From Octopus sinensis (lineage: Eukaryota): 64,000 nt of DNA. The notes below the pieces were generated by a model. It was not told the origin of the DNA, did not search any database, and saw only the letters and a program-made list of their open reading frames with translations. Position 1 is the stretch's first letter; every line of letters begins with the position of its first letter. Positions 14,890 to 64,000 of the stretch are shown here, in pieces. The DNA lies in contig NC_043001.1 in NCBI RefSeq assembly GCF_006345805.1, positions 129,022,001-129,086,000 of the forward strand, in the 5' to 3' direction. Position numbers and translations under genes: made by a program.

Positions 14890-15465
14890 TGGCAGAAACG
14901 CTTAGCAGTATTTCGTCTGTCGTTACGTTGTGAGTTCAAATTCCGCTGAGGTCGACTTTACCTTTCATCCTTTCGGGGTCGATAAATTAAGTACCAGTTA
15001 CGCACTGGGGTCGATGTAATCGACTTAATACCTATGTCTGTCCTTGTTTGTCCCCTCTATGTTTAGCCCCTTGTGGGTAATAAAGAAATAGGTATTTCGT
15101 CTGCCGCTACGCTCTGAGTTCAAATTCCGCCGAGGTCGACTTTACCTTTCATCCTTTCGGGGTCGATAAATTAAGTACCAGTTACGCACTGGGGTCGATG
15201 TATTCGACTTAATACCTATGTCTGTCCTTGTTTGTCCCCTCTATGTTTAGCCCCTTGTGGGTAATAAAGAAATAGGTATTTCGTCTGCCGCTACGCTCTG
15301 AGTTCAAATTCCGCCGAGGTCGACTTTACCTTTCATCCTTTTGGGGTCAATAAATTAAGTACCAGTTACACACTGGGGTCGATGTAATCGACTTAATACC
15401 TATGTCTGTCCTTGTTTGTCCCCTCTATGTTTAGCCCCTTGTGGGTAATAAAGAAATAGGTATTT
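14890..15465 (+). repeat. Head-to-tail trimer of the 184-bp family B SINE body
   Basis: gtattt unit starts at 14908, 15092, 15276 and 15460. The units are nearly identical. Confidence 0.95.
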
Positions 15466-19338: not shown

Positions 19339-19398
<60 letters not shown>

Positions 19399-19479
19399 TA
19401 TATATATAAATATACCAGAGTAAAAACATAAATGTGAAACAAGGTGGAAAAAGAGTACTCAAATACCAGTGGTAGAGTA

Positions 19480-19640
19480 ATATGCTTTATTTAAAAGCAG
19501 CAGAAAATTCAACAAAACCTGTTACTCTGAGTTTCACGTTCCCGTTCGTCGGACAGTTTTTGCTAGAATTCTAGCAAAAACTACCCGACGAACGGGAACA
19601 GGTTTTGTTGAATTTTCTGCTGCTTTTAAATAAAGTATAT
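19480..19640. repeat. Fold-back palindrome centred on gaattc (19566-19571) within (TA)n
   Basis: ctttatttaaaagcagcagaaaattcaacaaaacctgtt... is mirrored by ...aacaggttttgttgaattttctgctgcttttaaataaag. The right arm has a 17-nt deletion. Confidence 0.92.
19513..19562 (-). ncRNA. Minimal type-I hammerhead-like motif with a U4C core variant
   Basis: Minus strand: CAAAAACTGT-CCGACGA-ACG(GGAA)CGT-GAA-ACTC(A)GAGT-A-ACAGGTTTTG. All three stems pair, with a GUA triplet. Confidence 0.7.
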
Positions 19641-41793: not shown

Positions 41794-41839
41794 AACACAA
41801 CATTTCGGCTGATATACCGTCCAGCCTTCATCAGGTGTC
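41794..41839 (-). ncRNA. Minimal type-I hammerhead ribozyme motif (Penelope-like form)
   Basis: Minus strand: GACAC-CTGATGA-A-GGCTG(gacggtatat)CAGCC-GAA-ATGT-T-GTGTT. The core is intact with a 5-bp stem II. The minimal stem III ATGT is likely a CpG-decayed palindromic ACGT. Confidence 0.75.
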
Positions 41840-41929
41840 TTGAGGAAATTTCAAACCTGGGTTCTCATTCCTAAAGTATTTTTCGATGTTATTATTATTA
41901 TTATTATTATTATCATTATTATTATTATT

Positions 41930-43938: not shown

Positions 43939-44438
43939 TAGTTTTATTTTTATAGCGTGCTTTCACTTCACTACCGAGCGCAGCTCTGTGTGCCTTGGGT
44001 ATGTGCTGTGATTTGTTGTGATGCTCTGATGGTTATCGTATGGAAAGTGTTCTGCGTAGGATGTGTGCAATGCCTAGTAGTGCAATTTTCTGTATGTTAT
44101 ATGTGTTTGTAAGTCCTCGTGTTTTTGTTATGTATTTGTCTGAATATTTTTTTATCATGCCTAATGCACCTACTATGATAGGAATTGTTTCTGTTTTCAG
44201 GTTCCACATTCTAGTTACCTCCATTTCCAGGTCTTTGTATTTTGAGAGTTTCTCCATTTCTTTTAGAGACACGTTGTCATCTGCCGGTATTGATACATCA
44301 ATTAGAAAGCATTTTTTTCCTTCATGATCTCTGACAACTATATCTGGTCTGTTGGCCTTAATTTCTCTATCTGTGTGTATCGGCATATCCCAGAGTATGG
44401 TTGCTTTCTCGTTTTCTGTGACCTTTTCTGGTGTGTGC
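43936..44438 (-). mobile_element. 5'-truncated R4/Dong-like non-LTR retrotransposon: restriction-like endonuclease domain plus 3' UTR
   Basis: Open frame ILWDMPIHTDREIKANRPDIVV...LIDVSIP.D......EKLSKYKDL...IPIIVGALG (RPD...D and K..KY RLE motifs). Embedded in (ATT)n on both sides. Confidence 0.9.
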
Positions 44439-44483
44439 ATTATTATTATTATTATTATTAGTAGTAGTAGTAGTAGTAGTAGT

Positions 44484-44808
44484 AGCTCAGTGGTTAGAGC
44501 ATCGAGCATACGATCGTGTGGTTGTGAGTTCGAATCCCGGACCGGCTTGCGTGTTGTGTTCTTGAGCAAGACACTTTATTTCACGTTGCCCTAGTTCACT
44601 CAGCTGTAGAAATGAGTTGTGAGTCACTGGTGCCAAGCTGTATCGGCACCTTTGCCTTTCCCTTGGATAACATCAGTGGTGCAGAGAGGGGAGGCTGGTA
44701 TGCATGGGCGACTGCGGGCCTTCCACAAACAACCTTCCCCGGACTTGTATCTTGGAGGGTAACTTTCTAGGTGCAATCCCATGGTCATTCATGACCGAAG
44801 GGGGGTCT
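44484..44808 (+). mobile_element. SINE family C, younger copy
   Basis: A box gctcagtggttagagc and B box gagttcgaatccc. Colinear with 18533-18880. Confidence 0.85.
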
Positions 44809-47562: not shown

Positions 47563-47775
47563 AGTTAATCCAAACAAGAAAGCACAAAAAACACAACACC
47601 ACGAGGACGTGGAACAAATATAGTATTATTGGACGCTCAGGAAAGAAGGAAAGAAGGAGGGTTTAACGTTTCGAGTGGAGCTCTTCGTTGGAAACATAGG
47701 AGAAGGAAAGATCCAGAGAAGGGAAGACAGAGGAAAAAAAATCGCCAACGGTACACAAGAGGTCACATTTTGAAA
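47563..47775 (-). mobile_element. Short Penelope-like terminal fragment abutting (TA)n
   Basis: CpG-rich island next to (TG)/(TA)n that contains a hammerhead-like motif. Confidence 0.5.
47661..47695 (-). ncRNA. Minimal hammerhead-like motif with a variant or decayed core
   Basis: Minus strand: GTTT-CCAACGA-A-GAG(ctcca)CTC-GAA-ACGT-T-AAAC. The core has two deviations from CUGANGA. Confidence 0.5.
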
Positions 47776-49019
47776 GACCGGAGGCACAAGTGTGGCTGTG
47801 TGGTAAGAAGCTTGCTTCCCTACCACATGGTTCTGGGTTCATTCCCACTGCATGGTACCTTGAGCAAATGTCTTCTACTATAACCTCAGACAGACTAAGG
47901 CCTTGTGAGTGGATTTCGGAGACAGAAACTGAAAGAAGTCAGTCCGTATGTGTGTGTGTGGGTGTGTGATTTCTTGCTGAACAGCCACGCAAATGATTTG
48001 TTTATAGTGATCAAATGTTTACGTTCACATAAGCTCACTCCCTCCATCAAATCGACATTACCTGTATAGGTGCATTGTGTGCCACATGTAAAGTGATGAA
48101 ATCATCGCAGAGCAACATGAAATGAAGTGCTTTGCTCAAGAACGCAACAGTGTGCAGTGTGGGTGGTAGAGACACTAACGCAAATACACACACACACACA
48201 CACACATACAGAATTCTTTCAGTTTTTGTCAACCAAATCCATTCATAAAGTTTTGGTTGCCCTGCAGTTATTGTAGAAAACACCTGGCCAAGGGGGAACT
48301 GAAACCAGAACCTTGTGTCTGCTTCTGTATGTATGTGTTGACATCATTGATTAAAACCCTTCAGTGCAATGCCCCAGCATGGTCACTGTTCAATGACTAA
48401 AATAAAAAGAAAGAATGAAAGAGTATGTCATATCCACAAATAGATCAAAATATTTAATACAATCAACAACGAGAAATACTTCGAGGGAACAATTTTCTAT
48501 GATAAGGCATCAATATCTCAAGCTGGTAGCATAGAAATATTGATTTCAAAGTTTGGCACAAGGCCAGCAATTTCAGAGGAGTGGGTAAATCGATTACATT
48601 GACCCCAGTGCTCAAGTGGTGCTTATTTTATTGAACCAGAAAGGATGAAAGGCAAAGTCGACCCTGAAAGGCAAAGGTGACCTTGGTGAAATTTGAACTC
48701 AGAATGTAAAGACGGATGAAATGCTGCTTAGCATTTTGCCTGGCATGCTAATGATACTGTCAGCTTGTCACCCTAGTGAGCATGGAAATATTAAAATCCT
48801 ATATTGTATAATCCAAGTCAGTTTAAGAGCTGTTTACTCAAATATAAATTCATCTTCAAGGACAAAGGAATAAGAAACAACATATCCTTATAAAGCTGAT
48901 ATGGTCAATTACTGAAGCTAATATGCCTTACATAAAGATGAAGATAGAGACACAAATGTGTGGGCACACAAACACATGCACACGTTTATGTGAAGGTGAA
49001 GATGAAAACAAAAATATAA

Positions 49020-53023: not shown

Positions 53024-53028
<5 letters not shown>

Positions 53029-53193
53029 ATAAAATAATATGTTACAATTACTCAATAGTCAAGATAAAACTCTGAGTTTCAGATGCCGAAGTGGAAATCT
53101 GAAGAGATGGTGTTGTGGATTTCCACTTCGGCATCTGAAACTCAGAGTTTTATCTTGACTATTGAGTTATTGTAACATATTATTTTATAGATA
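53024..53193. repeat. Fold-back (~76-bp arms, 18-nt loop) in (TA)n with a hammerhead core at the turn
   Basis: 53024-53099 pairs with 53118-53193. The plus strand 53099-53149 reads CTGAAGA-GATG...CATC-T-GAA-ACTC(A)GAGT-T. Confidence 0.9.
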
Positions 53194-60053: not shown

Positions 60054-60283
60054 ACGGCGAGCTGGCAGAAACGTTAGCACGCCGGGCGAAATGCTTAGCG
60101 GTATTTCGTCTGCATACGTTGTGAGTTCAAATTCCGCCGAGGTCGACTTTACCTTTCATCCTTTTGGGGTCGATAAATTAAGTACCAGTTACGAACTGGG
60201 GTCGATGAAATCGACTTAATACCTATGTCTGTCTTTGTTTGTTCCCTCTGTGTTTAGCCCCTTGTGGGTAGTAAAGAAATAGG
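60054..60283 (+). mobile_element. Young family B SINE monomer
   Basis: CpG-intact head ggcgagctggcagaaacgttagcacgccgggcg. ggtataaaaagggtt is duplicated on both sides. Confidence 0.88.
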
Positions 60284-63016: not shown

Positions 63017-63403
63017 AGATGCTTTCTAATTGATGTATCAGTACCAACAAATGACAACGTTTCTCTTATAGAAACTGAGAAACGTTCAAAATACAAAGAT
63101 CTGGAAATAGAGGTAACTTGAATGTGGAGCCTAAAACCAGAAACGATTCCTATCATAGTAGGCACATTAGGTATGATATAAAAAAAACATTCAGAGAAAT
63201 ACATAACAAAAGCACCAGGAATTACTAGTATATATAACATACAGAAAATAGCACTACTAGACACTGCACACATCCTACGTAAAACACTTTTACTACAGTG
63301 AAAATAAGAACACCACAATAAACCACAGCACATACCCAAGGCACACAGAGCTATGTTCGGTAGTGCAGTGAAAGCACATGATAAAAATAAAAATATGACT
63401 ACT
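63017..63403 (+). mobile_element. Decayed R4/Dong-like 3' fragment, same family as 43936-44438
   Basis: CFLIDVSVPTNDNVSLIETEKRSKYKDLEIEVT*MWSLKPETIPIIVGTLG, followed by the same 3' UTR and (AAT)n. Confidence 0.85.
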
Positions 63404-63404
63404 A

Positions 63405-63463
<59 letters not shown>

Positions 63464-63486
63464 TAATAATAATAATAATAATGATG

Positions 63487-63544
<58 letters not shown>

Positions 63545-64000
63545 TAAATCCTACCAGGAATGAGACCAAACCTGAGTCAAACCAAAATTTTATTAATAAT
63601 AATAATCCTTTCTACTGTACATACAAGGCCTGAAATCTGAGGGAGGCATTTAGTGATTATATCAACCCCACTACTTGATTGATACTTATTTTATCAACCC
63701 TGAAAGGATGAAAAGCAAAGTCAAGATTGGTGAAATTTGAACTCAGAATGGAAAGACCAGAGGAAATGCTGCTAAGCATTTTGTCCAACATTTTAACAAT
63801 TCTGCCAGCTTTGCTGCCTAAATAGTAATAACAACAACAAAAACAACAATAATAATAATGCTAAGTTTTTAAAATTTTTACATCAAGCAAAAATTCATCA
63901 AATCAAAACAAAAAAATCAAATTTAACAAAATTTCATCTTTAAAGAAGCAGGTATTTCGCATCTCCCCAGAAAGTCTGGAATTAAAATCCATAGTTCTTT

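Follow-up and report, generated by a model that had tools for sequence, protein, structure and literature searches.

Is a hammerhead ribozyme core with C in place of U at position 4 (U4C) the normal state of a repeat family or the damage of a single copy, and could such a ribozyme still cut? The question is raised by a motif in the 64-kb stretch of low-GC, microsatellite-rich Octopus sinensis DNA analysed here (the window), for which an earlier note had described stem I with nine of ten pairs, stems II and III and the core CCGACGA. Our analysis found every one of these parts on the minus strand (19562-19513), where three helices surround the core in a type I hammerhead fold that is open at stem I (Table 1). 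C3, G5, A6, G8, A9, G12, A13, A14, the A15.1-U16.1 pair and H17 are all present (19552-19523, minus); the U4 of the CUGA turn, a standard feature of type I hammerheads, is replaced by C4, and the G10.1-C11.1 closing pair of stem II is missing, with A-U there instead (A.G in up to 20% of the contig depth described below). U4C itself is already known in hammerheads (available part of PMC3088659), which limits the surprise, and the requirement for cutting in the hammerheads of Penelope-like elements (PLEs) is itself in question (PMC8557442, PMC11167929). We refer to the repeat that carries the motif as family 1 and to a second repeat with a related core as family 2.

Table 1. Coordinates in the window of the two hammerhead motifs and of the fold-back insertion that contains the first of them
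Feature	Position	Strand	Basis or detail
Family 1 hammerhead with C4 core, Hydra-type layout	19513..19562	-	sequence, folding, layout against available rows of File S2 of PMC8557442
Stem I	19562-19553 with 19522-19513	-	9/10 pairs, one A.G mismatch
Core strand C3-C4-G5-A6-C7-G8-A9 (CCGACGA)	19546..19552	-	C3 = 19552, C4 = 19551
Stem II ACG-GGAA-CGT, 3 bp with GNRA loop GGAA	19536..19545	-	sequence
G12-A14 (GAA)	19535-19533	-	sequence
Stem III ACTC-A-GAGT, self-complementary, free 1-nt centre	19532-19524	-	predicted pairing between two copies
A17 at 19523; predicted cut after A17 (GUA triplet)	19522..19523	-	inferred from hammerhead numbering
Long arm, 5'-truncated 3' end (pLTR-like) of family 1 repeat; AATAAA 19491-19486	19412..19568	-	sequence, contig coverage
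Short inverted (mirror) arm, CCGACGA 19585-19591, ends in (TA)n	19569..19640	+	sequence
(TA)n tract, left flank	19340..19411	.	further (TA)n beyond the right arm, starting at about 19636
Family 2 minimal type I hammerhead: extra A after A9, G10.1-C11.1, 2-bp palindromic stem III	47662..47695	-	sequence, contigs
Family 2 high-copy repeat extent	47586..47775	-	17,878 X4 contigs aligned on 47570-47790

Predicted folding of the family 1 motif

Stem III of the 19513-19562 motif has a loop of 1 nt and so cannot close in a monomer; it could form only between two copies. The predicted monomer MFE (-7.0 kcal/mol) is not the hammerhead fold, and stems I and II alone reach -4.7 kcal/mol. For the dimer, the model gives -20.6 kcal/mol to the active fold and -25.6 kcal/mol to the MFE. 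Because stem II is weak without G10.1-C11.1 and the active dimer lies below the dimer MFE in stability, C4 could tip the family 1 motif to inactive. Folding also bears on the idea that C4 compensates for a misfold, in that a U4 core strand would pair with the A-centred stem III and C4 would break this trap: the folding model gives the U4 version of the 50-mer a fold of -10.6 kcal/mol in which the core pairs with stem III, and the C4 version no such fold. We regard this idea as very unlikely, since C4 makes a core-burying hairpin of its own (pair probability 0.47), the U4-bearing motif at 53099-53149 and the Hydra-clade hammerhead Penelope-3_HM have the same A-centred stem III, and the argument is not applicable to family 2.

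A strict hammerhead descriptor, defined after the match at 19513-19562 was known, matched the window once, at that site, and had no match in 100 block-wise dinucleotide shuffles, and a loose descriptor gave three distinct matches in the window versus 28 in the 100 shuffles. Rfam searches returned no hammerhead at gathering score for the motifs of the window, none at E up to 1 over the whole window among the 150 of 153 matches listed, and none at E up to 10 in the local stretch around 19513-19562. The Rfam matches listed for the window are microsatellite and hairpin look-alikes; a motif with a canonical core at 41834 is likewise unmatched.

Fold-back insertion in (TA)n

The motif sits in a head-to-head fold-back flanked by (TA)n tracts. 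Upstream of C3, each arm has about 16 nt. At the 3' end the long arm continues for about 68 nt past the point where the mirror arm stops, and 17 nt running from G12 to the cut site are missing from the mirror arm. The earlier note had taken the CCGACGA of the mirror arm as a sign that the change predates the fold-back; the heptamer is indeed kept there, but the mirror arm lacks those 17 nt and is no independent witness of the family state, because it comes from the same insertion as the long arm. At the 17-nt deletion there is a 3-nt microhomology (AAC, 19597-19600), the predicted cut site being one of the permitted breakpoints, and two single contigs of run X4 (see below) join the arms at 19523. 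Together these observations are a hint of cutting, albeit a weak one because of the microhomology. The long and mirror arms are predicted to fold as one hairpin (-101.7 kcal/mol) that buries the core, and on this model the 19513-19562 copy is likely inert, its ribozyme masked by the mirror arm: when the minus strand is transcribed through the locus, the mirror arm would be made first, and the long hairpin would then bury the ribozyme. No second copy of family 1 or family 2 was found in the window, the mirror arm excepted.

Position 4 in two high-copy families

We aligned contigs of public runs to each element at 80% likeness, using four of 24 runs per family and five runs overall. For family 1 these were X1, X4, X9 and X15, with 6,298, 8,068, 4,370 and 618 contigs aligned; for family 2 they were X4, X9, X15 and X20, with figures taken from the changes listed. 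X1, X4 and X9 are DNA runs, X9 carries another species label, and the assignment of X15 as RNA is a guess. Family 1 is a very abundant repeat with thousands of copies. Expressed as shares of summed contig depth, which are not copy counts and are biased towards the window's allele, U4 in family 1 amounts to 14.5% (X1), 4.7% (X4), 2.5% (X9) and 47.6% (X15), perhaps undercounted as only about 9 nt separate position 4 from the family edge, and C4 is found in 52-97% of depth. The values of X1 and X4 differ threefold. Because the stem II CpG of family 1 decays at 1.0-4.6% per side, U4 in X4 and X9 is at the level of CpG decay.

In family 2, whose U4 share measured in the same way is 22.9% (X4), 38.6% (X9), 6.1% (X15) and 32.2% (X20), the window copy has the core CCAACGA (47691-47685, minus), with A5 where the family has G5. 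The earlier note had suspected a decayed CCGACGA here, and the contigs bear this out: position 5 is G in 84.2% (X4), 82.8% (X9), 98.1% (X15) and 100% (X20) of depth, and CpG decay of C4-G5 is the simplest explanation for A5 in the 47691 copy. The stem II pair that is broken in the window's copy is restored in 61-92% of depth, and the catalytic G12 is A in 20.8% (X4), 0.1% (X9), 1.4% (X15) and 12.7% (X20).

Thus, C4 is the majority form of both repeat families and not single-site damage: it prevails in all eight run-by-family counts, the highest U4 share being the 47.6% of X15, the run guessed to be RNA. The earlier note had proposed that U4C may be fixed in two families, and had named copies mostly of the CTGACGA type as the outcome that would speak for decay at this locus. 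Our counts agree with a family-level C4 in both cases and not with fixation, given a U4 share of 2.5-47.6% for family 1 and of 6.1-38.6% for family 2. The view that a canonical CTGACGA hammerhead has decayed at this one locus can draw on the existence of these U4 copies, and on two further hammerhead-like motifs in the window that have U4 (41834, minus, and 53099, plus), yet it is already contradicted by the C4 majority and by the direction of CpG decay, which leads from C4 to U4 and not the reverse, and we consider it extremely improbable. Since the motifs at 41834 and 53099 have U4, C4 is a trait of the families and not of the genome.

The U4 share of X15 lies above that of the DNA run with the same species label in family 1 (47.6 versus 4.7%) and below it in family 2 (6.1 versus 22.9%). 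We rejected the notion that the expressed copies are the U4 copies, as X15 trends in opposite directions in the two families and depth summed over contigs is a crude gauge. We also rejected A-to-I editing as the source of C4, since the ribozyme strand shows a U-to-C change and DNA runs have it too.

Elsewhere in family 1, the changes that reach at least 10% in some run fall mainly on positions that a hammerhead leaves free. N7 is changed in 13-70% of depth, the centre base of stem III in 24-53% and position 11.1 in up to 20%; loop II is GCAA, still a GNRA tetraloop, in 34-65% of depth in three runs and in 0.1% in X9. The stem I mismatch of the window copy is paired in 82% of X9 depth, and in this run a stem I change from A-U to G.U is also among the larger changes. 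Among the changes listed there is none of at least 2% at C3, G5, A6, G8, A9, G12-A15.1, U16.1 or A17, although changes at G5 and G8 may be hidden by the nearness of the family edge. Because the changes cluster at free positions and none is listed at G5, G8 or G12, the hammerhead fold of family 1 looks to be under selection. Depth is steady across the predicted cut, with 1.77, 2.15 and 2.03 million in the X1 bins.

Probable relationship to Penelope-like elements

The family 1 motif likely lies in the 3' pseudo-LTR (pLTR) of a Hydra-type PLE, and we infer membership in the Hydra clade from the RNA layout and the insertion pattern. In a by-eye comparison with the rows of File S2 of PMC8557442 available to us, family 1 agrees with the Hydra layout near the 3' end, position 4 excepted. 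The locus itself shows insertion in (TA)n, an inverted 5'-truncated partner and an optional tail; according to the available part of PMC8557442, inverted 5'-truncated copies and optional tails are hallmarks of PLEs, and Hydra elements insert in (TA)n. The Hydra-clade hammerheads Hydra-2_aMil, Hydra-2_aJap and Penelope-3_HM resemble family 1 in their type I order, in a stem II that is short and a stem III that is a 4-bp palindrome around a single centre nucleotide, and in their place near the 3' end, (TA)n target and inverted truncated partner, and Hydra-2_aMil also has the CTGT/ACAG stem and the A17 of family 1. ACTC-N-GAGT occurs in five of the 26 Hydra-clade rows seen in File S2 and U4 in all 26, whereas family 1 has mostly C4. 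The motifs of both families (for family 1, the core plus stem II motif) had no text match in the portion of the PMC8557442 supplement that could be searched, and a degenerate motif had no locus in metagenome and prokaryote genome contigs. Among the open reading frames of the window, read by eye, none for a reverse transcriptase (RT) or a GIY-YIG endonuclease lies beside the family 1 or the family 2 motif. Further away, an open frame at 44033-44575 (minus) has motifs suggestive of a non-LTR retrotransposon, namely of its C-terminal domain, a restriction-like endonuclease, and a presumably similar antisense endonuclease-like piece is found near 63300-63576.

Family 2 agrees with the consensus of the min-HHRs, the minimal hammerheads known from metazoan PLEs (Cervera and De la Pena 2014, PMC4209133, as far as available): it has the extra base after A9, G10.1-C11.1 and a palindromic 15.2-16.2 without loop III, and shares the short stem I. 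Family 1, for its part, is without the G10.1-C11.1 of the min-HHR consensus. Both families are predicted to act as dimers, as are the min-HHRs (PMC4209133, same part), in which C4 occurs in none of the 56 representatives of Fig. S3, the search having fixed the core, and the core variant described is U3-A8. The hammerhead of the Poseidon element PAc from Anolis carolinensis (Frangieh et al. 2024, PMC11167929, available part) lies in a pLTR like that of family 1. RT starts at two internal sites in PAc, giving copies with and without a tail, and the two arm lengths in our locus suggest likewise; the PAc hammerhead has been bench-tested and is protein-assisted, whereas cutting by that of family 1 is a prediction from sequence and folding.

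Possible activity of the C4 core

A natural U4C viroid hammerhead (Ambros and Flores 1998, cited in PMC3088659 and PMC4075628) still allowed infection, and its in vitro activity was considerably lowered, according to the available text of PMC3088659. The core change is the same as ours, but in the viroid it is a sequence variant, whereas here C4 is the majority in two high-copy genomic repeats that have minimal dimer-type folds. The viroid in question is reportedly peach latent mosaic viroid. Of the two roles that the earlier note had offered for C4, a slower ribozyme draws on published work, and a structural signal for the RT would be a conjecture. Our literature searches yielded no PLE family described as having mainly C4 cores; such cores may be listed in Lunse et al. 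2017 or in Arkhipova et al. 2017, both of which are said to describe many PLE hammerhead variants. Position 4 is not addressed in the available parts of PMC11167929, PMC6765202, PMC6155905, PMC3376415 and PMC3907566.

One interpretation of these families is neutral: C4 would cleave like U4 in a dimeric, protein-assisted setting, and its prevalence would be a founder effect of two successful masters. The coexistence of U4 minorities with C4 in both families agrees with this, as do two published observations, each from the accessible part of its source: a C/T degeneracy at position 4 among the 1,305 hammerheads of a 2026 survey that used a CYGANGA descriptor (PMC13481778), and the lack of any position-4 change among 46 ribozyme-escape point or single-base mutants of phage MS2 (PMC4075628). 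We nevertheless find it unlikely, as U4C is said to lower activity considerably (PMC3088659) and U4 is found in 56 of 56 metazoan PLE-type representatives and in 26 of 26 Hydra rows, even if the core had been fixed in the searches behind these sets.

We judge it likewise unlikely, if anything slightly more so, that the motif is a dead relic kept as a structure, i.e. a three-way junction bound by the RT/endonuclease or in a packaging step and no more cutting. Such a relic would fit the finding that genomic copies of family 1 continue through the cut site. It would also fit results on the Anolis PLE, whose insertion in vitro is independent of cutting and for which no RNA reads end at the cut site (PMC11167929, part available), and the low activity that all CUGA-turn mutants of a type III hammerhead, except for the C3-G8 swap, had in a pairwise scan (PMC9901934, part available). 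On the other hand, G5, G8, G12-A14 and U16.1 are without listed change while free positions vary, which indicates a catalytic and not only a helical constraint; C has been reported as a tolerated change at position 4 (PMC3088659, PMC4075628); and the Anolis catalytic mutants insert unimpaired and thus lend no support to a core-specific binding role (PMC11167929).

On balance, we lean towards a functional reading: the motif would be a high-copy type I hammerhead, likely of a Hydra-type PLE 3' pLTR, whose C4 core is probably slowed yet working and in need of a dimer or a protein. The slower but infectious U4C viroid variant (PMC3088659) and the MS2 escape mutants, none of them changed at position 4 (PMC4075628), speak for this reading; the CUGA-turn mutants of low activity (PMC9901934) and the weak stem II of the motif speak against it. 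PLE hammerheads are described as weak and dimeric in the part of PMC4209133 available, their function is called unclear in the corresponding part of PMC8557442, and in the Anolis PLE the hammerhead is protein-assisted and cutting dispensable for insertion in vitro (PMC11167929). C4 would have arisen in an active master lineage and been amplified with that lineage. Copying by the RT of the element would set in downstream of the ribozyme and continue across the cut site, left uncut or re-ligated, and because of this a slower cut would cost the element little; with depth undiminished past the predicted cut, most templates would be uncut or re-ligated. Any PLE should show such read-through, which is hence not specific to C4. 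Occasional dimer- or protein-assisted cutting would process tandem transcripts and would keep G8, G12 and the stems under selection.

A bolder and rather doubtful proposal is that selection for a dimmer switch led two unrelated, extremely abundant PLE-like families of one animal genome convergently to U4C. Were it true, slow cutting would leave a full-length RT template, spare host transcripts that bear copies and favour massive spread, and the fixed CUGANGA core of PLE searches would have hidden some of the most abundant ribozymes. Descriptors built on CUGANGA would miss whole high-copy families, and families that keep the catalytic G residues with a mostly rate-lowering base at position 4, alongside U4 minorities, provide a natural C4/U4 pair for testing whether PLE hammerheads have to cut.

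Other motifs and repeats in the window

The motif with C3 at 41834 (41795-41846, minus) is a minimal hammerhead with a canonical CTGATGA core and a 6-bp stem II, adjoins a (TTA)n tract and represents a third PLE-like family. A second head-to-head fold-back in (TA)n is located at 53027-53190, where the plus strand has a Hydra-type hammerhead. Its core, CTGAAGA (53099-53105), is canonical, its stem III is ACTC-A-GAGT (53140-53148), and the 5' strand of its stem I is seemingly replaced by the inverted arm. The window also contains a SINE-like dispersed repeat of about 160 bases, found at 60100-60260 and in more than 25 other places, three copies of which are arranged in tandem at 14908-15437.
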